Shown: positions 2,982-64,000 of the stretch, piece by piece
Numbering within the stretch: the stretch's first letter is position 1
Layout of the letters: the number at the start of each line of letters is the position of its first letter
NCBI GenBank assembly: GCA_964016885.1
Contig: OZ024740.1
Location: forward strand, 3,968,001 to 4,032,000
Length of the DNA: 64,000 nucleotides
Source of the DNA: Eledone cirrhosa
Taxonomy: Eukaryota
Direction of reading: 5' to 3'
The notes under the pieces: generated by a model
The model's database searches: none
The model's input: only the letters and a program-made list of their open reading frames with translations
Told to the model about the DNA's origin: nothing
Position numbers and translations under genes: made by a program

Positions 2982-3101
2982 GATGTACCTACAGGTTTCT
3001 GGGGCAGGAGATTATAATGTTGGCCCCTACAAAGTGACAGATGTACCTACAGGTTTCTCGGGCTGCAGATTATCATGTTGGCCCCTACAAAGTGACAGAT
3101 G
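2982..3101. repeat. 58-bp direct tandem duplication (2 copies)
   Basis: gatgtacctacaggtttct...gttggcccctacaaagtgaca at 2982-3039 and 3040-3097 with a few mismatches. Confidence 0.92.
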
Positions 3102-5097: not shown

Positions 5098-6650
5098 CAT
5101 ATAATAATAATAATAATAATAATAATATAATTATTGTGTAAAGTGCTCAGGTGCACTACAACTCGTCAAAGGTGTATGTATAGTACATAGAATAATATAC
5201 AAATGTCAGGGAAGTGAATAGTGTATGAGTCATGATATACATGTGTGTGAGTGTATGGAGGGGAACATTAGGTGTAGTGTTGGCGAATCTTGGGAAGCAT
5301 GGAGGTTTTAAGGGATGCAGTGTCTCGGCAGCTAACAACTAATGCAAGGAGTTTGTTCCATGCTTCAGCAACTCTGAACGTGAAAAAATGTTTCCGAAAG
5401 TCATGGGAACTGTGCTGTTTTCTGACTTTGTGGGCATGTCCACGTGTGTTCGACACATGGAAATCAAAAAGGTGCTCAGGGTTGTTGTTGGCAAGATGGT
5501 TAACAATTTTGTGGGTGTTTACCAAGTCAGTTGCCAGGTGTCGGAGCTTCAATGTATCCATGCCCAAGGAAGCAAGGCGCCCAGAGTATGGTAGATGCCT
5601 GATGGAGGGTATTCGCTTGGTTGCACGTCTCTGAACAATTTCCAGGCGGTCAATGTTCTGAGCAAGATAGGGGTTCTAGACTGGTGATACAAATTCTAAG
5701 TGTGGCCACACCATAGCCATGTACAGCCTTAAATAGATAGCTGGAGAGCGGCTGGCAAAGGTCTTGCTGAATGATGCTAACACACCCTCAGCCCGCTTGG
5801 CAATTTTAGAGACGTGCTTCGTCCAACGCAAATCACTGCTGACCCTAATACCCAGGTCACGTTCACAAGAAGACTTCTTGATATTAGTGCTGTGGAGGGA
5901 GTATGTGGATGCTGGGTTTTTACTCCCAAAATGCATGGTGGTACACTTGTCCACAACTAGCTTGAAATGCCAGTCTGTGATCCATTGTTGCATTGTGTCC
6001 AGGTCAGACTGCAAGCAAGATCTATAGTGTTCAGGATCTGTCCTTTTTATCTCAAGGTACAGCTTGATGTCATCTGCGTACTTTAGTACTGTGGCATTCT
6101 TTAAGTTGGCATCTATGTCATTAATATATGCCACAAACAAAAGGGGACCAAGAACAGATCCCTGTGGTACACCAGATGACATCTCATATGGTGAGGAATG
6201 TTGTCCCAGAACCGTAACTACCTCTCTTTGACTGAGAATGAAGGACTTCAACCAGTTAAAAAGATCATCCTTCACACCCATTGCAGAGAGTTTTGCCATA
6301 AGCCTTTTGTGTGGCACAGAATTGAAAGCTTTCGCAAAGTCAAGGTAAATAACATCTACCCATGAGCCACCATCAGTGATCCGAGTAATGTCTTCAAGAA
6401 ACTCGATAAGTTGATCACAGCAGCTGGAGTTGGGGATAAATCCAAATTGCGAGGGCCGGATAAGACTGTGAGAGTTCCAGAAGTTCCAAAGTGTTTCTCT
6501 GACACAGGATTCCATCAGTTTCGCAATGCAACTAGTAAGACTGACTGGACGGTAGTTCACAGGTGATGTGCGGTCACCCTTTTTGAACAGAGGAATGACA
6601 CTGGCAGTTTTCCACTGTTCTGGAGTAGCACCGTTGTTCAGACAGAATTG
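5098..6650 (-). mobile_element. 5'-truncated CR1-type LINE with 3' UTR and (TAT)n tail
   Basis: RT coding region 6650->5268, 3' UTR ~5267-5134, simple-repeat tail seen as (ATA)n at 5098-5133. No endonuclease domain or ORF1. Confidence 0.92.
5268..6650 (-). pseudogene. CR1-type ORF2 reverse transcriptase fragment with one in-frame stop
   Basis: Motifs WKTASVIPLFKKG, NYRPVSLTS, QFGF, YLDFAKAF, GVPQGSVLGPLLF, YADD, ERDLG, LEIVQRRATK, TRGH, WNKL. ORFs 5676-6560 and 5268-5567 share one frame, split by TAG at 5676-5678 where Trp is expected (PV*NPY). Confidence 0.93.
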
Positions 6651-6689
6651 ATAACTGTATAGAATAGATAACTTCTTATTTGTAATGAA

Positions 6690-7045
6690 TAAAGGTCATG
6701 TTTTTGATTCCTGGTTCCGGCAGTACATTGTGACACTTCATTTCACATTACTCCAGCCCACTCTTCTGCAAGGCAACATCTTCAGAGCTGGTGACACATT
6801 GACATAAACCATGTCCACTGGTTGGTGAAAAGAAAGGCATCCAGATCTAAAATATGGCCTGAACAGATGATAGAAGAATAGTGGAGACTCTTTAGTCCCC
6901 TTGTACACAACACCTGTCACCTTTTAATACACCCCCAGTCCACAGAGTTGGCTGATCTTTGTTGTGTGCACCAGATGATGAAGAATGTGACAGGGCATAA
7001 TGACTCCTGCCAAACCCATACCAGCAGTAAAAAGAACAAACCAAC
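6690..7045 (+). mobile_element. Highly degenerate SINE-like relic
   Basis: ccactggttggtgaaaagaaaggcatccag and ccaaacccataccagca resemble mollusc SINE body/tail motifs (recalled). A related tail occurs at 11456-11505. Boundaries uncertain. Confidence 0.35.
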
Positions 7046-8305: not shown

Positions 8306-8338
<33 letters not shown>

Positions 8339-8340
8339 TA
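8243..8340. repeat. (GGTA)n / (GA)n / (GATA)n compound microsatellite abutting the Tx1 copy 1 3' end
   Basis: Directly visible. Confidence 0.93.
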
Positions 8341-10744
8341 TTTCTTTATTAGCCACAGGGGCACAAAAGAAGGGGACAAATACAAAGGGGGAAGTTTACA
8401 TACAATAAAAACGTGTAAAATGTTATCACAGATGGAATTTAAAAGTTAGTCGATTTTCCCCAATAGAGGGAGACAGTTTATATGGGTAACACAGACCCCC
8501 GAAAAAAATGTGCAACCCTCATCTCCAGGAGTACGAAGAGCTTGTACTCCTTTCCTCTCCTCCTCCTTTTCCTCAACCTACAGGCTGATATAGAGAGAAG
8601 GCCCATTCACTCGGGCCATTCTCGCCACTTTCACCCACCTTTCATAAAACTTGCTGGGGTACAGCACCTCTCTCTCCATCCTGATTCTTCTTCCAAAGTG
8701 GTATTTGAAAAAAAGAATCAGTTGTTGGCCGGAGAGAAAGGTGTCTGACCTCAGCCCTTTCAACCTTGTCCACCATACAACCTCTTTCGCCATAGCTATC
8801 ACACAAAGGAAAACCGCCTCTCCTTCGTTTTTGAAGGAGGGTGGCGGTTTGATCATGACAATGGACTCGGTGGTCAACTGGATTGGTCCCACCCGCGACA
8901 ATAGTCGTTCCACATAGCCCCACAGGTCAGTGACGCCCGGGCAGTGTATGAATGCGTGCGCGACGGTTTCTTCGTCTCGCACGCACCTCGGACAGATCTT
9001 TTTTGCAGGGTCCCTGCCCGGGCGCCCATGTCTGTAGAGCTTGTCTCGAACTGGTAGAGCTCCTCGGTAGCACTGCCAGGCCAGGGACTTTTGGAAGTTG
9101 TCCATCGGTCCCGGGCGGAAGGTCCTACCGAACAGACTGGCCAGTTCATCTTCCTCCACGCCTAGAGTTTCACCGAGCGCGTCGTCGCACTTGCTGCGGA
9201 CCAACCCTCTATAGAATGACGAAGTGGAGTCTCCACTGATCGCCGGGTCCGCCTGCCAGAGGGCTGTGAGCGCCTGAGCACATTCGATGTGCCAGTCGCC
9301 CATTTTCCTCGGTCTCTGCTTGACCCAGGACTGCAGCTCGGTCAGCGAGACGAGTCGTGGGAAGGCTCGCCTCACGAACGGGGCCCACACCGGTTGTCCG
9401 GTGAGGAATACGTAGAGATGCCGCAGCCTGAGCGCGTGTTTGCGCATCGTCAACCACGGCATCCCCAGCCCTCCGTTAGAAGGGTGTTGGCAGCAGATGG
9501 ATCTTCTTACCAAAGGAGCCCGCCTCTTCCAAAGGAATCGGAAGAGGGCGCGCTCCATTTTGGCGAGCGTTTTGGCTGGACAAGGCACGACGGTCAAGCG
9601 GTAGTAGATGGCGGACGCTATAAAAGTGTTCGCCACCTCCGCTCGACCTTTCAAGGATAGTTTGCACTCGGCCCACTTCTGGGTGAGTGCAAACACCTTG
9701 GCCGTCACTTCGTTCCAGTTCTTCTCCACCTGGAGGTCCGGACCAAACCAGACCCCGAGCAGCTTTACCGGTCCTTCCGTCCAGCGTCCGACGACGCCAT
9801 CGGAAGGCATCGGTCTGCCTCTCCACGATCCGAGTTGCAAACCGATGGACTTGTCCCGGTTCAGCTTCGCTCCTGTGAGACTTTCGTATTCCTTTAGTAA
9901 GGTGCCGACTTCCTCGATTTGCGAGGCGCTCGACACCATTACTGTCACGTCGTCGGCGTAGGCCGACGCCGCTTTCCGCAGTCCCGGTTCCAGAGGGATG
10001 CCCTGCAATAGCTCCAGCTTCCGCAGTAGTGGCTCGAGAGTCAGTACGTACAGAAGGGAGGAGAGAGGGCATCCCTGTCGAATGGATCGCGTAATATGGA
10101 ACGGCTCCGAGAGGTAACCGTTCACCTTGACCCTTGAGCAGATGTTGCTGTTGTGCATTGCAGCAATCCAGCCCCTGAACACGGGTCCGAAGCCTGCCGC
10201 CTCGAGCACCGCATCCAGGTAACGATGGTCAACCCTATCGAAAGCCTTAGACTGATCCAAGTTGATCAGGGCCCCACCGAAGCCGGGTTTACACCCTACC
10301 CTCTCTATGATGTATCGCATGAGGTGGAGGTTGTCGTGTATGGACCTGGTCGGGATCGCGCATGTCTGCGCTTCTCCCACCAGGTTCTCGACGACAAGCG
10401 CCAGCCTCTTTGCCAACACCTTGGCCAAAATCTGTAACTCTGTGTTTAGCAGAGTTATGGGCCGGAAGTTGCCTATGTCATCCCCCTTATTCTCGTCCTT
10501 CCTGATTAGTGTGACCACGCCCCCGGTTACAGAATTGGGAATTCTCCCGTTCTGTTGCCAGTTGCAGTAGACCGCTTCCAGGAGACCGGAGAATAAGTCC
10601 GGCATTGCTACGTAAAATTCGTAGGGTAGACCGTCGAGACCTGGAGATTTGCGTTTGCCGCATTGGCTCAGCGCGTCCCCTATCTCAGTGGCTGAAATCG
10701 GCTTTTCGCAGAACTTCGCCTCGCTGTCCGAGAGTCGCGGTAAG
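8341..10744 (-). mobile_element. Tx1-clade non-LTR retrotransposon copy 1 (5'-truncated, ~2.4 kb)
   Basis: ORF2 fragment plus ~235-bp 3' UTR ending GGCTAATAAAGAAA; (GATA)n on both sides; GC- and CpG-rich relative to the flanks. Confidence 0.92.
8578..10740 (-). CDS. Tx1/L1-type ORF2 fragment: reverse transcriptase plus C-terminal CCHC zinc knuckle (uninterrupted ~720 codons, no endonuclease, no native start)
   Basis: KSPGLDGLPYEFY, NFRPITLLN, DQSKAFDRVDH, RQGCPLS, YADDVTV, KLLGVWF, GGLGMP, CPRC...ETVAHAFIHC. The track's first ~30 residues come from the neighbouring 3' UTR and microsatellite. Confidence 0.88.
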   Translation of the reverse strand, partial: PRLSDSEAKFCEKPISATEIGDALSQCGKRKSPGLDGLPYEFYVAMPDLFSGLLEAVYCNWQQNGRIPNSVTGGVVTLIRKDENKGDDIGNFRPITLLNTELQILAKVLAKRLALVVENLVGEAQTCAIPTRSIHDNLHLMRYIIERVGCKPGFGGALINLDQSKAFDRVDHRYLDAVLEAAGFGPVFRGWIAAMHNSNICSRVKVNGYLSEPFHITRSIRQGCPLSSLLYVLTLEPLLRKLELLQGIPLEPGLRKAASAYADDVTVMVSSASQIEEVGTLLKEYESLTGAKLNRDKSIGLQLGSWRGRPMPSDGVVGRWTEGPVKLLGVWFGPDLQVEKNWNEVTAKVFALTQKWAECKLSLKGRAEVANTFIASAIYYRLTVVPCPAKTLAKMERALFRFLWKRRAPLVRRSICCQHPSNGGLGMPWLTMRKHALRLRHLYVFLTGQPVWAPFVRRAFPRLVSLTELQSWVKQRPRKMGDWHIECAQALTALWQADPAISGDSTSSFYRGLVRSKCDDALGETLGVEEDELASLFGRTFRPGPMDNFQKSLAWQCYRGALPVRDKLYRHGRPGRDPAKKICPRCVRDEETVAHAFIHCPGVTDLWGYVERLLSRVGPIQLTTESIVMIKPPPSFKNEGEAVFLCVIAMAKEVVWWTRLKGLRSDTFLSGQQLILFFKYHFGRRIRMEREVLYPSKFYERWVKVARMARVNGPSLYISL

Positions 10745-10785
10745 ATAGATAGATAGATAGATAAACAGATAGATAGATAGATACA

Positions 10786-11430
10786 TTTCTTTATTAGCCA
10801 CAAGGGCACAAAAGAAGGGGACAAATACAAATGGGGAGTTTACATACAGGTATATGAAAATAAAACTATTAATAAAATAACAAATAACAATTGATATCCC
10901 CAATAGGGGGGGAGGTGTTACACAGGGGTTGTACACACCCCGAAAAAATGTACAATCCTCATCTCCAGGAGCACCCAGAGTGAGTACCCCTTCCTCTCTT
11001 CCTCTTTTTCTTCAACCTACAAGCTTATATAGAGAGAAGGCCCAACCACACGGGCCATCTTTTCCACATTCACCCACCTTTTATAAAATTTGCTGGGGTA
11101 CAGCACCTCTCTCTCCATCCTGATTCTTCTTCCAAAATGATATTTGAAAAAACGAATCAGTTGCTTGCCGGAGAGAAAGGTGTCTGACCTCAGCCCTTTT
11201 AACCTCGTCCACCATATAACCTCTTTCACCATAGCCATAACACATAGGAAAACCGCCTCTCCCTCGTTTTTGAAGGAGGGTGGCGGTTTGATCATGACAA
11301 TGGACTCGGTGGTCAACTGGATTGGTCCCACCCACGACAATAGTCGTTCTACATAGCCCCACAGGTCGGTAACGCTCAGGCAGTGTACAAATGCGTGCGT
11401 GACGGTTTCCTTGTCACGCACGCATCTCGG
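10786..11430 (-). mobile_element. Tx1 copy 2 (5'-truncated, ~645 bp, variant 3' UTR)
   Basis: Peptide 11017-11421 nearly identical to the copy 1 C-terminus; same AATAAAGAAA end; (GATA)n at both junctions. Confidence 0.92.
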
Positions 11431-11505: not shown

Positions 11506-11532
11506 AGAGAAGTAGGTAGATATATAGATATG

Positions 11533-12423
11533 TTTCTTTATTAGCCACAGGTGACCAAAAGAAGGGGACAAATACAAAGGGGGAAGTTTACATACAATAA
11601 AAACATGTAAAATACTATCACAAATACAATTTAAAAGTTAATCGATTTTCCCCAAATAGGGGGAGACATTTCATATGGGTAACACATACCTCCGAAAAAA
11701 ATGTACAACCCTCATCTCCAGGAGTACGAAGAGTTTGTACCCCTTTCCTCTCTTCCTCTTTTTCCTCAACCTACAGGCTGATATAGAGAGAAGGCCCATT
11801 CACTCGGACCATTCTCGCCACTTTCACCCACCTTTCATAAAACTTGCTGGGGTACAGCACCTCTCTCTCCATCCTGATTCTTCTTCCAAAGTGGTATTTG
11901 AAAAGAAGAATCAGTTGTTGGCCGGAGAGAAAGGTGTCTGACCTCAGCCCTTTCAACCTCGTCCACCGTACAACCTCTTTCGCCATAGCTATCACACAAA
12001 GGAAAACCGCCTCTCCTTCGTTTTTGAAGGAGGGTGGCGGTTTGATCATGACAATGGACTCGGTGGTCAACCGGATTGGTCCCACCCGCGACAATAGTCG
12101 TTCTACATAGCCCCACAGGTCGGTAACACTCGGGCAGTGTATGAATGTGTGCACAACGGTTTCTTCATCTCGCACGCACCTCGGACAGATCTTTTTTGCA
12201 GGGACCCTGCCCGGGCGGCCATGGCTGTAGAGCTTGTCTTGAACTGGTAGAGCTCTTCGGTAGCACTGCCAGGCCAGGGACTTTTGGAAGTTGTCCATCG
12301 GTCCCGGGCAGAAGGTCCTACCGAACAGACTGGCCAGTTCATCTTCCTCTATGCCTAGAGTTTCACCGAGAGTCCGAGAGTGTCGTCGCACTTGCTGCGG
12401 ACCAACCCTCTATAGAATGTCGA
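11533..12423 (-). mobile_element. Tx1 copy 3 (5'-truncated, ~890 bp)
   Basis: Colinear with 8341-9222; carries an 8-bp duplication (ccgagagt x2, ~12366-12381) causing a frameshift; GATA-type repeats at both ends. Confidence 0.92.
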
Positions 12424-12569
12424 TAGATAAATAGATGGATAGATAGATAGACATTCTGATAGAGAGATAGACAGATATATAGACAGGTAGATAGAGAGAG
12501 AGAGAGACAGGTAGATATAGAGAGAGAGAGACAGGTAGACAGAGAGAGAGAGAGAGACAGGTAGATAAC

Positions 12570-12625
12570 TTTCTTTTTATTTGCCACCAGGGCATCAAAA
12601 GTGGGACAAGTACAAAGGGGGGAGT
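12570..12625 (-). mobile_element. Tx1 copy 4, 3'-terminal ~55-bp relic
   Basis: tttctttttatttgccaccagggcatcaaaagtgggacaagtacaaagggggga matches the copy 1 terminus tttctttattagccacaggggcacaaaagaaggggacaaatacaaaggggga. Confidence 0.8.
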
Positions 12626-14071
12626 AACAACTGATGGAGGTAGTTTGTTCCATGGAGGTTTTAAAGGATGCAGTGTCTCGGCAGCTAATAACTGATGCAG
12701 GGAGTTTGTTCCATGGAGGTTTTAAAGGATACAGTGTCTCAACAGCTGACAACTGATGTAGGTAGTTTGTTCCATGGAGGTTTTAAAATATGTAGTGTCT
12801 CGACAGCTATCAACTGATGCAAGTAGTTTGCTCCATGGAGGTTTTAAAGGATGCAGTGTCTCGACAGCTAACAACTGATGCAGGGAGTTTGTTCCATGGA
12901 GGTTTTAAAGGATGCAGTGTCTCGACAGCTATCAACTGATGTAGGTAGTGTGTTCCATGGAGGTTTTAAAGGATGCAGTGTCTCGACAGCTAACAACTGA
13001 TGCAGTTAGTTTGTTCCATGGAGGTTTTAAAGGATGCAGTGTCTCGGCAGTTAATAACTGATGCAGGGAGTTTGTTCCATGGAAGTTTTAAAGGATGCAG
13101 TGTCTCGGCAGCTAACAACTGATGCAGGGAGTTTGTTCCATGGAGGTTTTAAAAGATGCAGTGTATCGACAGCTGACAACTGATGTAGGTAGTGTGTTCC
13201 ATGGAGGTTTTAAAGGATGCAGTGTCTCGACAGCTAACAACTGATGCAGGGAGTTTGTTCCATGGAGGTTTTAAAGGATGCAGTGTCTCGACAGCTATCA
13301 ACTGATACAGATAGTTTGTTCCATGGAGGTTTTAAAGGATGCAGTGTCTCGACAGCTAACAACTGATGTAGGTAGTTTGTTCCATGGAGGTTTTAAAGGA
13401 TGCAGTGTCTCGACAGCTGACAACTGATGTAGGTAGTTTGTTCCATGGAGGTTTTAAAGGATGCAGTATCTCGACAGCTATCAACTGATCCAGGTAGTTT
13501 GTTCCATGAAGGTTTTAAAGGATGCAGTGTCTCGACAGCTAACAACTGATGCAGGGAGTTTGTTCCATGGAGGTTTTAAAGGATGCAGTGTCTCGACAAC
13601 TGACAACTGATGCAGGTAGTTTGTTCCATGGAGGTTTTAAAGGATGCAGTGTCTCGACAGCTGACAACTGATGCAGGGAGTTTGTTCCATGGAGGTTTTA
13701 AAGGATGCAGTGTCTTGACAGCTAACAACTGATGCAGGTAGTTTGTTCCATGGAGGTTTTAAAGGATCAGTGTCTCGGCAGCTGACAACTGATGTAGGTA
13801 GTGTGTTCCATGGAGGTTTTAAAGGATGCAGTGTCTCAACAGCTAACAACTGATGCAGGGAGTTTGTTCCATGGAGCTTTTAAAGGATGCAGTGTCTCGA
13901 CAGCTAACAACTGATGCAGGTAGTTTGTTCCATGGAGGTTTTAAAGGATGCAGTGTCATGACAGCTAACAACTGATGCAGGTAGTTTGTTCCATGGAGGT
14001 TTTAAAGGATGCAGTGTCTCGACAGCTAACAACTGATGCAGGCAGTTTGTTCCAATCTTCAGCAACTCTGA
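12626..14071. repeat. 61-bp tandem satellite (~23 copies) derived from the CR1 ORF2 3' end
   Basis: Unit catggaggttttaaaggatgcagtgtctcgacagctaacaactgatgcagg[g/t]agtttgttc; period 61 (12651, 12712, 12773); matches 5298-5358. Confidence 0.96.
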
Positions 14072-14142
14072 AGCTGGTGTATGGAGAATAACTTAAAGGT
14101 ACTTATATAGAATTATGATGGAAAGATTTTAGATAAATATTA

Positions 14143-14415
14143 CTTATAGGTAAGTTATAGGCAAGTTATAGGTAAGTTATAGGTAAGTTATAGGTCAGTT
14201 ATAGATAAGTTATAGGTAAGTTATAGAAAGTTATAGATAAGTTATAGGTAACTTATATGTAAGTTATAGGTAAGTTATAGAAAGTTATAGAAAGTTATAG
14301 ATAAGTTATAGGTAAGTTATAGGTAACTTATATGTAAGTTATAGGTAAGTTATAGGTAAGTTATAGATAAGTTATAGGTAACTTATAGGTAACTTATAGG
14401 TAAGTTATAGGTAAG
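14143..14415. repeat. 11-bp minisatellite (taggtaagtta)n
   Basis: Directly visible, ~25 copies with variants. Confidence 0.94.
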
Positions 14416-15060: not shown

Positions 15061-18000
15061 GAGAGATTGAGGGCTGCACCAGCCACACTGTGGTACTGGG
15101 TCTGAGAGATTGAGGACTGCACCAGCCACACTGTGGTACTGGGTCTGAGAGATTGAGGACTGCACCATCCACACTGTGGCACTGGGTCTGAGAGATTGAG
15201 GACTGCACCATCCACACTGTGGTACTGGGTCTGAGAGATTGAGGGCTGCACCATCCACACTGTGGCACTGGGTCTGAGAGATTGAGGACTGCACCATCCA
15301 CACTGTGGCACTGGGTCTGAGAGATTGAGGACTGCACCACCCACACTGTGGTACTGGGTCTGAGAGATTGAGGACTGCACCATCCACACTGTGGCACTGG
15401 GTCTGAGAGATTGAGGACTGCAGTATCCACACTGTGGTACTGGGTCTGAGAGATTGAGGACTGCACCATCCACACTGTGGCACTGGGTCTGAGAGATTGA
15501 GGACTGCACCATCCACACTGTGGCACTGGGTCTGAGAGATTGAGGACTGCAGTATCCACACTGTGGTACTGGGTCTGAGAGATTGAGGACTGCAGTATCC
15601 ACACTGTGGTACTGGGTCTGAGAGATTGAGGACTGCACCAGCCACACTGTGGCACTGGGTCTGAGAGATTGAGGACTGCACCAGCCACACTGTGGCACTG
15701 GGTCTGAGAGATTGAGGGCTGCACCTCCCACACTGTGGCACTGGGTCTGAGAGATTGAGGACTGCACCAGCCACACTGTGGCACTGGGTCTGAGAGATTG
15801 AGGACTGCACCATCCACACTGTGGTACTGGGTCTGAGAGATTGAGGACTGCACCACCCACACTGTGGCACTGGGTCTGAGAGATTGAGGACTGCACCAGC
15901 CACACTGTGGCACTGGGTCTGAGAGATTGAGGGCTGCACCTTCCACACTGTGGCACTGGGTCTGAGAGATTGAGGGCTGCACCATCCACACTGTGGCACT
16001 GGGTCTGAGAGATTGAGGACTGCACCATCCACACTGTGGCACTGGGTTTGAGAGATTGAGGACTGCACCAGCCACACTGTGGCACTGGGTCTGAGAGATT
16101 GAGGGCTGCACCATCCACACTGTGGCACTGGGTCTGAGAGATTGAGGACTGCACCATCCACACTGTGGCACTGGGTCTGAGAGATTGAGGGCAGCACCAT
16201 CCACACTGTGGCACTGGGTCTGAGAGATTGAGGGCTGCACCATCCACACTGTGGCACTGGGTCTGAGAGATTGAGGGCAGCACCAGCCCCACTATGGTAC
16301 TGGGTCTGAGAGATTGAGGGCTGCACCAGCCCCACTATGGCACTCGGTCTGAGAGATTGAGGGCTGCACCATCCACACTGTGGCACTGGGTCTGAGAGAT
16401 TGAGGGCAGCACCATCCCCACTATGGTACTGGGTTGAGAGATTGAGGGCTGCACCAGACCCACTATGGCACTGGGTCTGAGAGATTGAGGGCTGCACCAT
16501 CCACACTGTGGCACTGGGTCTGAGAGATTGAGGGCAGCACCAGCCCCACTATGGCACTGGGTCTGAGAGATTGAGGGCTGCACCATCCACACTGTGGCAC
16601 TGGGTCTGAGAGATTGAGGGCTGCACCATCCACACTGTGGTACTGGGTCTGAGAGATTGAGGGCAGCACCAGCCCTACTATGGCACTGGGTCTGAGAGAT
16701 TGAGGGCTGCACCATCCACACTGTGGTACTGGGTCTGAGAGATTGAGGGCAGCACCAGCCCCACTATGGCACTGGGTCTGAGATATTGAGGCCTGCACCA
16801 TCCACACTGTGGCACTGGGTCTGAGAGATTGAGGGCTGCACCATCCACACTGTGGTACTGGGTCTGAGAGATTGAGGGCAGCACCAGCCCTACTATGGCA
16901 CTGGGTCTGAGAGATTGAGGGCTGCACCACCCACACTGTGGCACTGGGTCTGAGAGATTGAGGGCAGCACCAACCACACTGTGGAAATGGGTCTGAGAGA
17001 TTGAGGGCTGCACCAGCCACACTATGGCACTGGGTCTGAGAGATTGAGGGCTGCACCATCCACACTATGGCACTGGGTCTGAGAGATTGAGGGCTGCACC
17101 ATCCACACTATGGCACTGGGTCTGAGAGATTGAGGGCAGCACCATCCCCACTATGGCACTGGGTCTGAGATTTTGAGGCCTGCACCATCCACACTGTGGC
17201 ACTGGGTCTGAGAGATTGAGGGCTGCACCATCCACACTGTGGTACTGGGTCTGAGAGATTGAGGGCAGCACCAGCCCTACTATGGCACTGGGTCTGAGAG
17301 ATTGAGGGCTGCACCATCCACACTATGGCACTGGGTCTGAGAGATTGAGGGCAGCACCAACCACACTGTGGCACTGGGTCTGAGAGAGTGAGGGTACACC
17401 AGCCACACTGTGGTACTGGGTCTGAGAGAGTGAGGGCAGCACCATACACACTGTGGCACTGGGTCTGAGAGAGTGAGGGCAGCACGAGCCACACTGTGGT
17501 ACTGGGTCTGAGAGATTGAGGGCAGCACCATCCACACTATGGCACTGGGTCTGAGAGATTGAGGGCTGCACCATCCACACTGTGGCACTGGGTCTGAGAG
17601 ATTGAGGGCTGCACCAGCCCCACTGTGGTCCTGGGTCTGAGAGATTGAGGGCAGCACCATCCCCACTGTGGTACTGGGTCTGAGAGATTGAGGGTAGCAC
17701 CATCCACACTGTGGTACTGGGTCTAAAAGATTGAGGACTGCACCATCCACACTGTGGTACTGGGTCTGATAGATTGAGGACTGCACATCCACACTGTGGG
17801 ACTGGGTCTGAGAGATTGAGGACTGCACCTCCACACTGTGGTACTGGGTCTGAGAGATTGAGGGTAGCACCATCCACACTGTGGTACTGGGTCTGATAGA
17901 TTGAGGACTGCACCATCCACACTGTGGTACTGGGTCTGAGAGATTGAGGGTAGCACCATCCACATTGTGGTACTGGGTCTGAAAGATTGAGGACTGCAAC

Positions 18001-21000
18001 ATCCACACTGCGGTACTGGGTCTGAGAGATTGAGGACTGCACCAGCCACACTGTGGTACTGGGTCTGAAAGATTGAGGACTGCACCATCCACACTGTGGT
18101 ACTGGGTCTGAGAGATTGAGGGTAGCACCATCCACACTGTGGTACTGGGTCTGAGAGATTGAGGACTGCACCTCCACACTGTGGTACTGGGTCTGAGAGA
18201 TTGAGGGTAGCACCATCCACACTGTGGTACTGGGTCTGAAAGATTGAGGACTGCAACATCCACACTGTGGCACTTGGTCTGAGAGATTGAGGACTGCACC
18301 ATCCACACTATGGCACTGGGTCTGAGAGATTGAGGGCTGCACCATCCACACTATGGCACTGGGTCTGAGAGATTGAGGGCTGCACCATCCACACTGTGGC
18401 ACTGGGTCTGAGAGATTGAGGGCAGCACCAGCCCCACTATGGCACTGGGTCTGAGAGATTGAGGCCTGCACCATCCACACTGTGGCACTGGGTCTGAGAG
18501 ATTGAGGGCTGCACCATCCACACTGTGGTACTGGGTCTGAGAGATTGAGGGCAGCACCAGCCCTACTATGGCACTGGGTCTGAGAGATTGAGGGCAGCAC
18601 CAACAACACTGTGGAAATGGGTTTGAGAGATTGAGGGCTGCACCAGCCACACTATGGCACTGGGTCTGAGAGATTGAGGGCTGCACCATCCACACTATGG
18701 CACAGGGTCTGAGAGATTGAGGGCTGCACCATCCACACTATGGCACTGGTTCTGAGAGATTGAGGGCAGCACCAACCACACTGTGGCACTGGGTCTGAGA
18801 GAGTGAGGGCAGCACCAGCCACACTGTGGTACTGGGTCTGAGAGAGTGAGGGCAGCACCATACACACTGTGGCACTGGGTCTGAGAGAGTGAGGGCAGCA
18901 CGAGCCACACTATGGCACTGGGTCTGAGAGATTGAGGGCAGCACCATCCACACTATGGCACTGGGTCTGAGAGATTGAGGGCTGCACCATCCACACTGTG
19001 GCACTGGGTCTGAGAGTGTGAGGGCAGCACCATCCACACTATGGCACTGTGTCTGAGAGATTGAGGACTGCAGTATCCACACTGTGGTACTGGGTCTGAG
19101 AGATTGAGGGCTGCACCAGCCCCACTGTGGCCCTGGGTCTGAGTGATTGAGGGCAGCACCATCCCCACTGTGGCACTGGGTCTGAGAGATTGAGGGTAGC
19201 ACCATCCACACTGTGGTACTGTGTCTGAGAGATTGAGGACTGCACCTCCACACTGTGGGACTGGGTCTGAGAGATTGAGGACTGCACCATCCACACTGTG
19301 GTACTGGGTCTGAAAGATTGAGGACTGCAACCACCACACTGTGGCACTGGGTCTGAGAGATTGAGGGCAGCACCATCCACACTGTGGCACTTGGTCTGAG
19401 AGATTGAGGACTGCACCATCCACACTGTGGCACTGGGTCTGAGAGATTGAGGGCAGCACCATCCACACTGTGGTACTGGGTCTGAGAGATTGAGGGCAGC
19501 ACCATCCACACTATGGTACTGGGTCTGAGAGATTGAGGACTGCACCAGCCACACTGTGACACTGGGTCTGAGAGATTGAGGACTGCACCATCCACACTGA
19601 GGTACTGGGTCTGACAGATTGAGGGCAGCACCATCCACACTGTGGCACTGGGTCTGAGAGATTGAGGACTGCAGTAACCACAAGGTGGCATTGGGTCTGA
19701 GAGATTGATGGCTGCAGTACCCACACTGTGGCACTGGGTCTGAGAGATTGAGGACTGCAGTATCCACACTGTAGTACTGGGTCTGAGAGATTGAGGGCTG
19801 CACCATCCACACTGTGGCACTGGGTCTGAGAGATTGAGGACTGCACCATCCACACTGTGGTACTGGGTCTGAGAGATTGAGGACTGCACCATCCACACTG
19901 TGGCACTGGGTCTGAGAGATTGAGGACTGCGCCATCCACACTGTGGTACTGGGTCTGAGAGATTGAGGACTGCACTATCCACACTGTGGCACTGGGTCTG
20001 AGAGATTGAGGACTGCACCATCCACACTGTGGCACTGGGTCTGAGAGATTGAGGACTGCACCAGCCACACTGTGGGACTGGGTCTGAGAGATTGAGGACT
20101 GCACCAGCCACACTGTGGCACTGGGTCTGAGAGATTGAGGACGGCAGTACCCACACTGTGGTACTGGGTCTGAGAGATTGAGGACTGCACCATCCACACT
20201 GTGGCACTGGGTCTGAGAGATTGAGGACTGCACCATCCACACTGTGCCACTGGGTCTGAGAGATTGAGGGCTGCACCATCCACACTGTGGCACTGGGTCT
20301 GAGAGATTGAGGACTGCACCATCCACACTGTGGCACTGGGTCTGAGAGATTGAGGACTGCAGTACCCACACTGTGGCACTGGGTCTGAGAGATTGAGGAC
20401 TGCACCATCCACACTGTGGCACTGGGTCTGAGAGATTGAGGGCTGCACCATCCACACTGTGGTACTGGGTCTGAGAGAGTGAGGGCAGCACCAGCCACAC
20501 TGTGGTACTGAGTCTGAGAGATTGAGGGCTGCACCATCCACACTGTGGTACTGGGTCTGAGAGATTGAGGGCAGCACCATCCACACTGTGGTACTGGGTC
20601 TGAGAGATTGAGGACTGCAGTAACCACACTGTGGTACTGGGTCTGAGAGATTGAGGACTGCACCATCCACACTGTGGTACTGGGTCTGAGAGATTGAGGA
20701 CTGCACCATCCACACTGTGGTACTGGGTCTGAGAGATTGAGGATTGCACCATCCACACTGTGGCACTGGGTCTGAGAGATTGAGGGCTGCACCATCCACA
20801 CTGTGGAACTGGGTCTGAGAGATTGAGGACTGCAGTAACCACACTGTGGCACTGGGTCTGAGAGATTGAGGACTGCACCATCCACACTGTGGAACTGGGT
20901 CTGAGAGATTGAGGACTGCAGTAACCACACTGTGGCACTGGGTCTGAGAGATTGAGGACTGCACCAGCCACACTGTGGCACTGGGTCTGAGAGATTGAGG

Positions 21001-24000
21001 GCTCCACCATCCACACTGTGGCACTGGGTCTGAGAGATTGAGGGCTCCACCAGCCATACTGTGGGACTGGGTCTGAGAGATTGAGGAGTGCTACATCCAC
21101 ACTGTGGTACTGGGTCTGAGAGATTGAGGATTGCACCATCCACACTGTGGCACTGGGTCTGAGAGATTGAGGGCTGCACCATCCACACTGTGGAACTGGG
21201 TCTGAGAGATTGAGGACTGCAGTAACCACACTGTGGCACTGGGTCTGAGAGATTGAGGACTGCACCATCCACACTGTGGCACTGGGTCTGAGAGATTGAG
21301 GACAGCACCAGCCATACTGTGGGACTGGGTCTGAGGAGATTGAGGACTGCACCATCCACACTGTGGCACTGGGTCTGAGAGATTGAGGACTGCACCAGCC
21401 ACACTGTGGCACTGGGTCTGAGAGATTTAGGACAGCACCAGCCATACTGTGGGACTGGGTCTGAGAGATTGAGGAGTGCACCATCCACACTGTGGAACTG
21501 GGTCTGAGAGATTGAGGACTGCACCAGCCACACTGTGACACTGGGGCTGAGAGATTGAGGGCTCCACCATCCACACTGTGGTACTGGGTCTGAGAGATTG
21601 AGGACTGCACCATCCACACTGTGGCACTGGGTCTGAGAGATTGAGGACAGCACCAGCCATACTGTGGGACTGGGTCTGAGAGATTGAGGACTGCACCACC
21701 CACACTGTGGCACTGGGTCTGAGAGATTGAGGGCTGCACCATCCACACTGTGGTACTGGGTCTGAGAGATTGAGGACGGCAGTTACCACACTGTGGCACT
21801 GGGTCTGAGAGATTGAGGACAGCACCAGCCATACTGTGGGACTGGGTCTGAGAGATTGAGGACTGCACCATCCACACTGTCGCACTGGGTCTGAGAGATT
21901 GAGGACTGCAGTATCCACACTGTGGTACTGGGTCTGAGAGATTGAGGGCTGCACCATCCACACTGTGGCACTGGGTCTGAGAGATTGAGGACTGCAGTAA
22001 CCACACTGTGGTACTGGGTCTGAGAGATTGAGGGCTGCACCATCCACACTGTGGCACTGGGTCTGAGAGATTTAGGACAGCACCAGCCACACTGTGGTAC
22101 TGGGTCTGAGAGATTGAGGACTGCAGTAACCACACTGTGGCACTGGGTCTGAGAGATTGAGGACTGCACCAGCCACATTGTTGCACTGGGTCTGAGAGAT
22201 TGAGGACTGCACCAGCCACACTGTGGTACTGGATCTGTGAGATTGAGGACTGCAGTATACACACTGTGGCACTGGGTCTGAGAGATTGAGGACTGCACCA
22301 GCCACATTGTGGCACTGGGTCTGAGAGATTGAGGATTGCACCATCCACACTGTGGCACTGGGTCTGAGAGATTGAGGGCTGCACCATCCACACTGTGGAA
22401 CTGGGTCTGAGAGATTGAGGACTGCAGTAACCACACTGTGGCACTGGGTCTGAGAGATTGAGGGCTGCACCATCCACACTGTGGCACTGGGTCTGAGAGA
22501 TTGAGGACTGCACCAGCCACATTGTGGCACTGGGTCTGAGAGATTGAGGACTGCACCAGCCACACTGTGGCACTGGGTCTGAGAGATTGAGGACTGCACC
22601 ATCCACACTGTGGCACTGGGTCTGAGAGATTGAGGGCAGCACCATCCACACTGTGGCACTGGGTCTGAGAGATTGAGGGCTGCACTATCCAAACTGTGGA
22701 ACTGGGTCTGAGAGATTGAGGACTGCACCATCCACACTGTGGCACTGGGTCTGAGAGATTGAGGACTGCACCATCCACACTGTGGTACTGGGTCTGAGAG
22801 ATTGAGGACTGCACCAGCCACACTGTGGCACTGGGTCTGAGAGATTGAGGACTGCACCATCCACACTGTGGTACTAGGTCTGAGAGATTGAGGACTGCAC
22901 CATCCACACTGTGATACTGGGTCTGAGAGATTGAGGGCAGCATCATCCACACTGTGGCACTGGGTCTGAGAGATTGAGGTCTGCACCATCCACACTGTGG
23001 CACTGGGTCTGAGAGATTGAGGACTGCACCATCCACACTGTGGCACTGGGTCTGAGAGATTGAGGACTGCACCATCCACACTGTGGCACTGGGTCTGAGA
23101 GATTGAGGACTGCAGTATCCACACTGTGGCACTGGGTCTGAGAGATTGAGGGCTGCACCATCCACACTGTGGCACTGGGTCTGAGAGATTGAGGACTGCA
23201 CCATCCACACTGTGGCACTGGGTCTGAGAGATTGAGGACAGCACCAGCCATACTGTGGGACTGGGTCTGAGGAGATTGAGGACTGCACCAGCCACACTGT
23301 GGCACTGGGTCTGAGAGATTGAGGACTGCACCAGCCACACTGTGGCACTGGGTCTGAGAGATTTAGGACAGCACCAGCCATACTGTGGGACTGGGTCTGA
23401 GAGATTGAGGAGTGCACCATCCACACTGTGGAACTGGGTCTGAGAGATTGAGGACTGCACCAGCCACACTGTGACACTGGGGCTGAGAGATTGAGGGCTC
23501 CACCATCCACACTGTGGTACTGGGTCTGAGAGATTGAGGACTGCACCATCCACACTGTGGCACTGGGTCTGAGAGATTGAGGACAGCACCAGCCATACTG
23601 TGGGACTGGGTCTGAGAGATTGAGGACTGCACCACCCACACTGTGGCACTGGGTCTGAGAGATTGAGGGCTGCACCATCCACACTGTGGTACTGGGTCTG
23701 AGAGATTGAGGACTGCAGTTACCACACTGTGGCACTGGGTCTGAGAGATTGAGGACAGCACCAGCCATACTGTGGTACTGGGTCTGAGAGATTGAGGACT
23801 GCACCAGCCACACTGTGGGACTGGGTCTGAGAGATTGAGGACTGCAGTACCCACACTGTGGCACTTGGTCTGAGAGATTGAGGGCTGCACCATCCACACT
23901 GTGGAACTGGGTCTGAGAGATTGAGGGCAGCACCATCCACACTGTGGTACTGGGTCTGAGAGATTGAGGACTGCACCATCCACACTGTCGCACTGGGTCT

Positions 24001-27000
24001 GAGAGATTGAGGACTGCAGTATCCACACTGTGGTACTGGGTCTGAGAGATTGAGGGCTGCACCATCCACACTGTGGCACTGGGTCTGAGAGATTGAGGAC
24101 TGCAGTAACCACACTGTGGTACTGGGTCTGAGAGATTGAGGGCTGCACCATCCACACTGTGGCACTGGGTCTGAGAGATTTAGGACAGCACCAGCCACAC
24201 TGTGGTACTGGGTCTGAGAGATTGAGGACTGCAGTAACCACACTGTGGAACTGGGTCTGAGAGATTGAGGACTGCACCAGCCACATTGTGGCACTGGGTC
24301 TGAGAGATTGAGGACTGCACCAGCCACACTGTGGTACTGGATCTGTGAGATTGAGGACTGCAGTATCCACACTGTGGCACTGGGTCTGAGAGATTGAGGA
24401 CTGCACCAGCCACATTGTGGCACTGGGTCTGAGAGATTGAGGGCTGCACCATCCACACTGTGGCACTGGGTGTGAGAGATTGAGGACTGCACCATCCACA
24501 CTGTGGAACTGGGTCTGAGAGATTGAGGACTGCAGTATCCACACTGTGGCACTGGGTCTGAGAGATTGAGGACTGCACCAGCCACATTGTGGCACTGGGT
24601 CTGAGAGATTGAGGACTGCACCAGCCACACTGTGGCACTGGGTCTGAGAGATTGAGGACTGCACCATCCACACTGTGGCACTGGGTCTGAGAGATTGAGG
24701 GCAGCACCATCCACACTGTGGCACTGGGTCTGAGAGATTGAGGGCTGCACTATCCAAACTGTGGAACTGGGTCTGAGAGATTGAGGACTGCACCATCCAC
24801 ACTGTGGCACTGGGTCTGAGAGATTGAGGACTGCACCATCCACACTGTGGTACTGGGTCTGAGAGATTGAGGACTGCACCAGCCACACTGTGGCACTGGG
24901 TCTGAGAGATTGAGGACTGCACCATCCACACTGTGGTACTAGGTCTGAGAGATTGAGGACTGCACCATCCACACTGTGATACTGGGTCTGAGAGATTGAG
25001 GGCAGCATCATCCACACTGTGGCACTGGGTCTGAGAGATTGAGGTCTGCTCCATCCACACTGTGGCACTGGGTCTGAGAGATTGAGGACTGCACCATCCA
25101 CACTGTGGCACTGGGTCTGAGAGATTGAGGACTGCACCATCCACACTGTGGCACTGGGTCTGAGAGATTGAGGACTGCAGTATCCACACTGTGGCACTGG
25201 GTCTGAGAGATTGAGGGCTGCACCATCCACACTGTGGCACTGGGTCTGAGAGATTGAGGACTGCACCATCCACACTGTGGTACTGGGTCTGAGAGATTGA
25301 GGACTGCACCATCCACACTGTGGTACTGGGTCTGAGAGATTGAGGACTGCACCATCCACACTGTGGCACTGGGTCTGAGAGATTGAGGACTGCAGTATCC
25401 ACACTGTGGCACTGGGTCTGAGAGATTGAGGGCTGCAGTATCCACACTGTGGCACTGGGTCTGAGAGATTGAGGACTGCAGTTACCACACTGTGGCACTG
25501 GGTCTGAGAGATTGAGGACTGCACCATCCACATTGTGGCACTGGGTCTGAGAGATTGAGGACTGCACCAGCAACACTGTGGCACTGGGTCTGAGAGATTG
25601 AGGACTGCAACATCCACACTGTGGGACTGGGTCTGAGAGATTGAGGACTGCACCATCCACACTGTGGCACTGGGTCTGAGAGATTGAGGACTGCACCATC
25701 CACACTGTGGGACAGGGTCTGAGAGATTGAGGACTGCACCCCCACACTGTGGCACTGGGTCTGAGAGATTGAGGACTGCACCATCCACACTATGGCACTG
25801 GGTCTGAGAGATTGAGGACTGCACCATCCACACTGTGGGACTGGGTCTGAGAGATTGAGGACTGCACCAGCCACACTGTGGGACTGGGTCTGAGAGATTG
25901 AGGACTGCAGTACCCACACTGTGGTACTGGGTCTGAGAGATTGAGGACTGCACCACCCACACTGTGGCACTGGGTCTGAGAGATTGAGGACTGCAGTATC
26001 CACACTGTGGCACTGGGTCTGAGAGATTCAGGACTGCACCATCCACACTGTGGCACTGGGTCTGAGAGATTGAGGACTGCACCATCCACACTGTGGTACT
26101 GGGTCTGAGAGATTGAGGGCTGCACCATCCACACTGTGGAACTGGGTCTGAGAGATTGAGGACTGCACCAGCCACACTGTGGTACTGGGTCTGAGAGATT
26201 GAGGACTGCACCAGCCACACTGTGGTACTGGGTCTGAGAGATTGAGGGCTGCACCATCCACACTGTGGAACTGGGTCTGAGAGATTGAGGACTGCACCAG
26301 CCACACTGTGGTACTGGGTCTGAGAGATTGAGGACTGCACCATCCACACTGTGGTACTGGGTCTGAGAGATTGAGGGCTGCACCTTCCACACTGTGGAAC
26401 TGGGTCTGAGAGATTGAGGACTGCACCATCCACACTGTGGTACTGGGTCTGAGAGATTGAGGGCTGCACCATCCACACTGTGGAACTGGGTCTGAGAGAT
26501 TGAGGACTGCACCAGCCACACTGTGGTACTGGGTCTGAGAGATTGAGGACTGCAGTATCCACACTGTGGCACTGGGTCTGAGAGATTCAGGACTGCACCA
26601 TCCACACTGTGGCACTGGGTCTGAGAGATTGAGGACTGCACCATCCACACTGTGGTACTGGGTCTGAGAGATTGAGGACTGCACCAGCCACACTGTGGTA
26701 CTGGGTCTGAGAGATTGAGGACTGCACCATCCACACTGTGGTACTGGGTCTGAGAGATTGAGGACTGCACCATCCACACTGTGGTACTGGGTCTGAGAGA
26801 TTGAGGACTGCACCAGCCACACTGTGGCACTGGGTCTGAGAGATTGAGGACTGCAGTACCCACACTGTGGCACTTGGTCTGAGAGATTGAGGGCTGCACC
26901 ATCCACACTGTGGAACTGGGTCTGAGAGATTGAGGGCAGCACCATCCACACTGTGGTACTGGGTCTGAGAGATTGAGGACTGCACCAGCCACTCTGTGGC

Positions 27001-27095
27001 ACTGGGTCTGAGAGATTGAGGACTGCACCAGCCACACTGTGGTACTGGGTCTGAGAGATTGAGGACTGCGCCATCCACACTGTGGTACTGGGTCT
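15061..27095. repeat. 43-bp satellite array (~280 copies)
   Basis: Consensus gagagattgaggactgcaccatccacactgtggcactgggtct; sharp boundaries; regional variant clusters and ~2-kb internal duplications. Confidence 0.98.
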
Positions 27096-62329: not shown

Positions 62330-64000
62330 TACCACCACTATATATACACTACCACCACTATATATACACTACCACCACTATATATACACTACCACCACTA
62401 TATATATACACCACCACTATATATACACTACCACCACTATATACACACTACCACCACTATATATACACTACCACCACTATATACACTACCAGCACTATAT
62501 ACACTACCACCACTATATATACACTACCACCACTATATACACACTACCACCACTATATATACACTACCACCACTATATATATACTACCACCACTATATAT
62601 ACACTACCACCACTATATATACACTACCACCACTATATATATACACCACCACTATATATACACTACCACCACTATATACACACTACCACCACTATATACA
62701 CTACCACCACTATATATACAGTACCACCACTATATACACTACCAGCACTATATACACTACCACCACTATATATACACTACCACCACTATATATACACTAC
62801 CACCACTATATACACTACCAGCACTATATACACTACCACCACTATATACACACTACCACCACTATATACACTACCACCACTATATATACTACCACCACTA
62901 TATATACACTACCACCACTATATATACACTACCACCACTATATACACACTACCACCACTATATACACTACCACCACTATATATACACTACCACCACTATA
63001 TACACTACCAGCACTATATACACTACCACCACTATATATACACTACCACCACTATATATACACTACCACCACTATATATACACTACCACCACTATATATA
63101 CACTACCACCACTATATATACACTACCACCACTATATACACTACCACCACTATATACACTACCACTACTATATACACACTACCACCACTATATATACACT
63201 ACCACACTATATACACACTACCACCACTATATACACACTACCACCACTATATATACACTACCACCACTATATATACACTACCACCACTATATATACACTA
63301 CCACCACTATATATACACTACCACCACTATATATAAACTACCACCACTATATACACTACCACCACTATATATACACTACCACCACTATATATACACTACC
63401 ACTACTATATACACACTACCACCACTATATACACACTACCACCACTATATATAAACTACCACCACTATATATAAACTACCACCACTATATATACACTACC
63501 ACCACTATATACACTACCACCACTATATACACACTACCACCACTATATACACACTACCACCACTATATATAAACTACCACCACTATATATACACTAGCAC
63601 CACTATATACACACTACCACCACTATATACACACTACCACCACTATATATATACTACCACCACTATATACACACTACCACCACTATATATAAACTACCAC
63701 CACTATATATACACTACCACCACTATATATACACTACCACCACTATATATACACTACCACCACTATATACACTACCACTACTATATACACACTACCAGCA
63801 CTATATACACTACCACCACTATATATACACTACCACCACTATATATACACTACCCCCACTATATATATACACTACCACCACTATATATACACTACCACCA
63901 CTATATATATACTACTACCACTATATACACACTACCACCACTATATACACACTACCACCACTATATATACACTACCACCACTATATATACACTACCACCA
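62330..64000. repeat. ~20-bp minisatellite (accaccactatatatacact)n, running off the window end
   Basis: Directly visible; unit length varies (~18-22 bp) mainly through the number of TA steps. Confidence 0.97.

Follow-up and report, generated by a model that had tools for sequence, protein, structure and literature searches.

How does a short slice of a retrotransposon come to be repeated many times in a row, and at what point in the life of the element does this happen? The question is raised by a 61-bp tandem array in the window, the whole stretch of 64,000 nucleotides of Eledone cirrhosa DNA analyzed here (contig OZ024740.1, positions 3,968,001 to 4,032,000, assembly GCA_964016885.1). An earlier note on this stretch had read the array as a satellite born within a CR1 LINE by duplication between two CATG tetramers. 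The relevant features are:

12625..14054, minus strand: 61-bp tandem array of 23.5 units (TRF period 61, 92% matches); the unit is a slice of the ORF2 C-terminus of a CR1-type LINE whose sense strand is the minus strand
14051..14072, minus strand: host CR1 sequence left from ORF2, upstream of the array; it includes the second hairpin arm in degenerate form (2 mismatches)
12569..12624, minus strand: 56-bp 3' end of a Tx1-type LINE, fused to mid-unit at the left end of the array
12422..12568, no strand: GATA/GA microsatellite adjoining the 3' end of the Tx1 fragment
5101..6695, minus strand: single-unit, 5'-truncated CR1-type copy with RT domain, ORF2 stop (5268-5270), 3' UTR and ATT-type tail (5101-5131)
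5298..5358, minus strand: lone 61-bp slice in this neighboring copy, found by BLAST against the array units
5294..5303, plus strand: left arm of a 10-bp inverted repeat, GAAGCATGGA, core CATG
5357..5366, plus strand: right arm of the same inverted repeat, TCCATGCTTC, core CATG

The array in the window and its host element

The homology behind this reading holds. The majority unit of the array differs from positions 5298-5358 of the neighboring copy at 5 of 61 positions (BLAST E values of 1e-14 to 1e-27), and the slice does lie between a CATG at 5298 and a CATG at 5359. On the minus strand it encodes the end of ORF2 (AWNKL...SM), the closest named relative of which is an Octopus sinensis protein with 73% identity. 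ORF2 matches RVT_1 with an E value of 1e-36, and relatives carry endonuclease and RT domains. The element shares a non-LTR RT ORF2, a short 3' UTR, a simple-repeat tail and 5' truncation with LINEs of the CR1 clade, to which it probably belongs; the clade name comes from the earlier note and the C-terminal motif.

Since the array junction occurs in raw reads of three other individuals (1,492, 1,536 and 1,510 reads, with 41-62 start places) and in 14 contigs of a second organism, the array is not an assembly artefact. In the reads, the junction appears as a 61-base step back with a 4-base overlap that fits both sides. Among the matches listed for two further organisms (C and E), none contained it. 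We could confirm the window array as a real, ordinary but damaged member of its family.

The copy at 5101-6695 had been taken for a parental-type copy visible in the same window. However, the 22 full units of the array show on average 2.4 differences from the family-majority unit and 6.3 from the slice in this copy, which is hence a relative and not the parent. A unique local birth from this copy was rejected on the same grounds, and because hundreds of other loci hold in-place arrays with identical breakpoints.

The right end of the array does run on into CR1 ORF2, with 81 bp at 91% identity up to about 14072, but the CATG at this end has mutated to CAAT (14053-14056); the internal junctions read GTTC-CATG-GAGG. 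Homology to the host CR1 stops at about 14072 by 5' truncation, leaving 18 bases of ORF2 past the right end of the array. The left end requires a correction, as it joins the 3' end of a Tx1-type LINE, not CR1. This fragment occupies the place expected for the remaining units, 3' UTR and tail of the host CR1, all of which are absent from the window. The window array is what is left of a CR1 copy of its own, which was subsequently shortened and joined to a Tx1 3' end.

Two mobile carriers were considered and rejected. Exact matches to the Tx1 3' end number 2,102; of the 25 that were inspected, the 24 from other loci all extend into Tx1 sequence and none into an array, which speaks against a Tx1-tailed chimera or SINE that carries the array. 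A Helitron-type carrier, an idea derived from the 11-bp repeat to the right of the array, was dropped as its flank was seen at no other array locus.

The Tx1 fragment is cut at the identical base at position 12624 of the window and at locus L016; these loci are unrelated, each fragment lies beside a 61-bp array, and the orientations are opposite. Four Tx1-type LINE pieces on the same strand stand in series between 8338 and 12624 (8338-10743, which bears RT and zf-RVT domains, 10783-11430, 11525-12421 and 12569-12624). Each has its 3' end at a GATA tract, and at the 24 other loci this 3' end likewise adjoins GATA/TATA-type tracts, mostly long ones. These pieces look like a microsatellite-targeting family that nests in its earlier targets.

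Family census and breakpoint

A genome search for arrays with the same breakpoint, proposed in the earlier note, found at least 654 in-place arrays of two or more units with the identical CATG junction, next to 2,912 exactly anchored single-unit copies (18% of 3,566 copies carry arrays). This census was anchored on one exact UTR-side sequence, and 654 is a lower bound because the anchor caught only three of nine junction sites in the first 4.33 Mb of chromosome C1. The exact junction occurs 24,507 times, corresponding to about 1.5 Mb. A three-unit query returned 2,110 candidates, 40 of which were scored. The CR1 3' UTR directly adjoins the array at 25 of 29 other loci, and the remaining four stretches start inside the array. 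Unit numbers, determined for 90 of the first 95 anchored arrays (C1-C3), range from 2 to at least 75 with a median of 8.5, and include 19 dimers. All copy-number variation seen here is variation between loci, as the sequences examined were short reads or contigs.

Since most copies hold a single unit, the repeat is not an inherent feature of most of the family, and the concern that the CR1 consensus itself might carry this slice in tandem can be set aside. Nor is the term satellite appropriate. The arrays are dispersed over hundreds of loci, measure 0.1-5 kb among those examined and lie inside CR1 copies. With a 61-bp head-to-tail unit, short arrays, homology to and location within a transposable element (TE), and distal enrichment, they form a dispersed TE-derived minisatellite family. 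The duplication exchanges the last 9 residues of ORF2 for 8 others followed by a new stop (L079, L069, L089), and the extra units become 3' UTR. ORF2 is thus left nearly whole, and an array-bearing element could remain coding-competent.

Two pairs of near-identical arrays lie 170-230 kb apart (C20:3.567 and 3.739 Mb; C1:426.66 and 426.89 Mb). They are either segmental duplicates or haplotigs, and the locus counts are slightly inflated by them. Ten copies of a young CR1 variant at C1:143.3-143.97 Mb, spaced by about 50-60 kb on one strand, suggest a large tandem segmental repeat.

Each CATG forms the palindromic core of one arm of the 10-bp inverted repeat on either side of the unit. In the last 1.55 kb of the element, as read from one long copy, this is the sole perfect inverted repeat of at least 10 bp (loop of at most 150). 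The same 1.55 kb hold 718 direct microhomologies of at least 4 bp, 53 of at least 6 bp, and 20 CATG pairs. The chance of finding six extra complementary bases around the CATGs is 2.6e-4. The hairpin formed by the two arms is the centroid fold on both DNA strands. With a 53-nt loop and about -7 kcal/mol it is weak and no better than shuffles (z of -0.1 to -0.2), so the case for a causal role is an argument from a single coincidence. In the second organism the majority variant breaks two inner stem pairs, and the junction is nonetheless present.

No recurrent duplication was found at the 19 other CATG pairs nearby, and 100 kb of flanks contained no other recurrent period, only ten scattered ones. 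An exact deletion between the CATGs had no match genome-wide and was absent from the best 15 of 85 joints in the reads. Loop inversion between the arms, a common product of inverted repeats, was not seen in the 20 of 22 matches that were checked. A genome-wide search for alternative periods of 24-59 bp returned 93 matches. Visual inspection showed most of them to be 61-mers that share the junction but carry internal deletions; a 43-bp form also recurred. Secondary arrays with shortened units homogenized from the 61-mer (41, 57 and 43 bp, and alternating 43 and 61) lie at C9:10.84 Mb, C17:8.63 Mb, C21:10.26 Mb and on C132; the 43-bp form is present at several loci.

Chromosomal position and timing

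Positions were taken from the first 100 matches listed per search. On the two largest chromosomes (C1 and C2) the terminal 10% hold 64 of 67 arrays, but only 16 of the 82 single copies whose unit equals the majority one (p = 7e-23). Of the dimers, 12 of 13 are terminal (p = 6e-7). When arrays and single copies were retrieved with the same anchor from C1 0-85 Mb, 12 arrays were terminal and one interior, against 42 and 58 single copies (p = 7e-4). In one young lineage, the 100 copies listed on C1-C8 include a single array, whereas its other 68 copies include at least 13 (C12-C25, p = 3e-5). Another young lineage has 80 copies along C1, 15 of them terminal, and contributes one to the arrays listed. 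We could show that the LINE family has put thousands of single-unit copies evenly along the chromosomes, and statistically that dimers and longer arrays arise in many lineages, confined to distal or small-chromosome DNA. In two Octopus species recombination is reported to be higher toward chromosome tips and lower in the centers of large chromosomes (PMC13174406), and by analogy the array-rich DNA is probably high-recombination DNA.

Several other relations with position or age were weak. Array length is not significantly correlated with distance to the chromosome end (rho -0.19, p = 0.08), arrays within 2 Mb of each other do not share significantly more rare variants than distant ones (p = 0.13), and the flanks of arrays are not significantly older than those of terminal single copies (4.6% vs 3.8%, p = 0.09). 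An apparent shortage of the young CC type among arrays was seen on C1-C3 (6 of 95) and vanished over the whole genome (152 of 654).

The dependence on chromosomal position also makes RT template jumping and rolling circles, both named in the earlier note as possible amplification routes, a poor fit. A tree of the UTR and ORF flanks, built from the 60 of 140 copies that have at least 300 bp of ORF and largely star-like, requires 18 changes of array state compared to 20 with shuffled labels. Grouping of all array-bearing copies in one clade is rejected (AU test, p = 9e-7), which rules out a single array-bearing subfamily. Together with the large majority of single-unit copies (2,912 of 3,566), this result also separates the family from native internal VNTRs of the SVA or LTR12 type.

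The extent of the host copies provides further evidence on timing. ORF2 sequence follows 82 of the 88 complete arrays. Among arrays of up to 1,250 bp, 65 of 70 continue into ORF2, against 47.6 predicted for arrays already present in the template; among longer arrays, 17 of 18 do so, against at most 26% predicted, and only 13 of 50 single copies reach this length. Thirteen dimers contain 28 differing bases, compared to 56.6 expected under duplication at insertion. The arrays also show locus-specific variants and higher-order repeats. In 30 small arrays the first and last units share 19 variants (2.6 in shuffles) and differ in 90. The 90 differing variants, and the fact that some of the shared ones are those of the source element, imply that many duplications occurred early or from another template. 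Array-bearing copies contain less of ORF2 than terminal single copies do (median 164 bp vs 395 bp, p = 0.01); this shorter reach counts against formation after insertion, which leaves it unexplained. At L025 an inversion at the truncation lies inside the array, as though the array had already been in the RNA, and some arrays may travel by retrotransposition. On balance, we are confident that insertion comes first and that the arrays then form in place, in recombining DNA.

Seeding, mechanism and related systems

The CC subfamily served as a marker for the template of the first duplication. Among the first 30 of 152 CC-first matches, one (L254) was no true array; of the other 29 arrays, 16 consist of CC units throughout, eight are mixed and five have CC followed by TT only, so that 13 of 29 hold TT units. 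Eight of nine dimers in this subfamily are CC-CC although CC is rare among non-first units (31 of 1,156 on C1-C3), which indicates self-duplication. At L250 and L253 a second source-specific variant is present in all seven units. L007 and L020 are flanked on either side by young-subfamily sequence, and in both a CC first unit precedes TT units; unit types of different subfamilies are mixed at L007, L014 and L023. At L092 units with 0.4% divergence are embedded in flanks that are 9.2% diverged. In our judgement, self-duplication and import of foreign units both operate, and self-duplication is the main seed. Four arrays that are otherwise all CC (L231, L236, L242, L244) have a lone foreign TT unit in last position on the ORF side, and TT is the final unit in 9 of the 28 CC-first arrays that are complete.

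Haber and Louis (1998) and Jurka and Gentles (2006) are cited in work on TE-derived minisatellites (PMC3389668, PMC6947457). On the Haber-Louis route a 4-bp direct repeat would undergo slippage or unequal crossing-over of the ordinary kind, with the inverted repeat irrelevant; this amounts to the microhomology-mediated duplication of the earlier note, many times over. The 4-bp overlap at the junction fits this idea, but it falls short of the 5-10 bp direct repeat of that model, and the longer symmetry here is a 10-bp inverted one. Moreover, one CATG pair of 20 was used; the 19 others and 53 direct repeats of at least 6 bp in 1.55 kb gave rise to no recurrent period in the 100 kb of flanks scanned. 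The model also predicts losses as well as gains, and we found 654 gains and no exact loss. We therefore regard this route as very improbable, even though distal enrichment is typical of minisatellites in general (PMC7608644, PMC6947457). Retrotransposition could act in two ways, by RT jumping back 61 nt at an RNA hairpin or by array-bearing source elements that copy their arrays to new sites. An element that keeps ORF2 almost whole could stay competent for this, and the inversion at L025, the six arrays among 88 that stop short of ORF2, the shorter 5' extent of array copies, the few short arrays in chromosome interiors and the many unshared variants in dimers are all consistent with it. It does not explain the strong dependence on position within one young lineage, nor is it compatible with the rejection of a single clade or with the continuation of 17 of 18 long arrays into ORF2. 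Retrotransposition is therefore largely refuted, and improbable, as the main route.

A stronger competitor is spread by conversion. In this scenario the junction arose few times; array-bearing copies in recombining regions then acted as donors in ectopic gene conversion and passed it on to other dispersed CR1 copies, so that the hairpin mattered once at most. Identical breakpoints, the lack of deletions, the terminal bias and the unclustered flanks would all follow without repeated new events. The young flanks of L007 and L020 around a CC unit and TT units point in this direction, as do the CC-first arrays with TT units only after the first (5 of 29) or with mixed units (8), and L092. On the other hand, the predominance of CC-CC dimers, given how few non-first units are CC, and the source-specific variant in every unit of L250 and L253 argue for duplication of a copy's own unit; rare variants lack regional sharing. 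Donors matched by homology could weaken the objection from own variants and missing sharing. We consider spread by conversion unlikely as the general explanation.

We favor the explanation that inserted copies undergo duplication repeatedly, in a way that is tied to recombination and likely guided by the hairpin, with local expansion and exchange between loci to follow. Repair of meiotic breaks would expose single strands on which the two arms likely pair; the 61-bp loop would then be copied twice and rejoined at CATG. In a variant of this scheme, staggered nicks at the base of the paired arms would be filled in and joined via CATG. Such filling and joining of staggered cuts, a step drawn from general repair pathways, would produce the observed junction and a gain without reciprocal loss. 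Unequal exchange may then lengthen arrays to 2-75 or more units, as the locus-specific variants and higher-order repeats suggest, and the mixed-subfamily arrays point to ectopic gene conversion that moves units between loci and probably seeds some arrays. We think that this full hairpin-guided model is probably correct for the minisatellite family. A bolder version is tentative, and we would rather doubt than assert it: a chance hairpin would make each LINE copy a one-way minisatellite seed triggered by recombination, and the arrays would swap units, convert naive copies and spread as a parasite of a parasite, tracing the meiotic recombination map. No function of the arrays for the host is evident.

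Reportedly, the mouse B1 VNTR of Bois et al. (1998) and the MaLR-derived Ms6-hm and Hm-2 of Kelly (1994) have units of 5-6 bp that stem from a pre-existing dimer or short run, whereas the 61-bp unit described here was created without a pre-existing repeat. These mouse families are likewise cases of one site expanded independently in many copies of one retroelement family (PMC9659126, PMC6947457). Human minisatellites derived from Alu and other TEs also represent a retroelement slice between short direct repeats that was duplicated and expanded in place (Ahmed and Liang 2012, PMC3389668). In that survey 0.18-0.40% of Alu copies carry a tandem repeat, with a mean of 2.3-2.4 units and variable breakpoints; flanking repeats of 5-20 bp account for about 300 of 7,276 cases, known models explain 6% of TE-derived tandem repeats and leave 94% of origins unexplained, and no genomic hotspots were seen (PMC3389668). 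Here, in contrast, 18% of copies carry arrays with one breakpoint, a median of 8.5 units, a 4-bp overlap within a 10-bp inverted repeat and a strong distal bias.

The chicken HinfI repeat, the CR1-C centromeric satellites and the cetacean common satellite (L1) contain, as the present arrays do, a 3' part of CR1 or L1 ORF2 (PMC9659126, PMC6947457). According to these sources their monomers are long and form a small number of large blocks separate from the element, while the units described here are short and lie inside hundreds of dispersed copies. Maize CRM1TR and CRM4TR are likewise derived from retrotransposons, arose more than once from one region and were enlarged by gene conversion (PMC3648361). 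These are LTR elements at two or three centromeric loci, with differing 5' breakpoints and little movement between loci as described there, in contrast to hundreds of distal loci with one breakpoint and signs of exchange. Internal repeats of SVA, LTR12, L1PA and Helitrons vary in number among copies in a similar way, but in those elements the repeat is part of the consensus and travels with the element (PMC3389668, PMC9659126), whereas 82% of the anchored copies here are single-unit and array state follows position.

TE-derived minisatellites, their origin at short direct repeats, CR1-containing satellites and distal VNTR enrichment are already in print (PMC3389668, PMC6947457, PMC9659126, PMC7608644, PMC3648361). 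Our search of openly accessible papers found no description of a minisatellite that is bounded by an inverted repeat, has a fixed breakpoint, is gain-only, depends on position and occupies about a fifth of a LINE family. Arrays of this kind were not encountered in a repeat annotation published recently for Octopus vulgaris (PMC13282606).

The interest of the locus lies in the family rather than in the array of the window. It is an open question how a minisatellite acquires its first duplication, and this family would be a natural experiment on it. It offers thousands of near-identical substrates in DNA of high and low recombination, in stages from single unit through dimer to 75-mer, with subfamily markers that tell self-duplication from import. 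Birth rate, direction of gain and loss, dependence on hairpin and recombination, and exchange between loci are all measurable in one genome. For a group that has no pedigree maps, the share of array-bearing copies may also act as a fossil record of recombination along the chromosomes.

Finally, most of the window consists of other tandem repeats, namely 43 bp x 280 (15061-27095), 26 bp x 1,266 (28788-60867), 20 bp x 85 (62330-64000) and 11 bp x 25 (14144-14415). These may also be element-derived. A 58-bp dimer with 93% matches is found at 2982-3101, outside any identified element.
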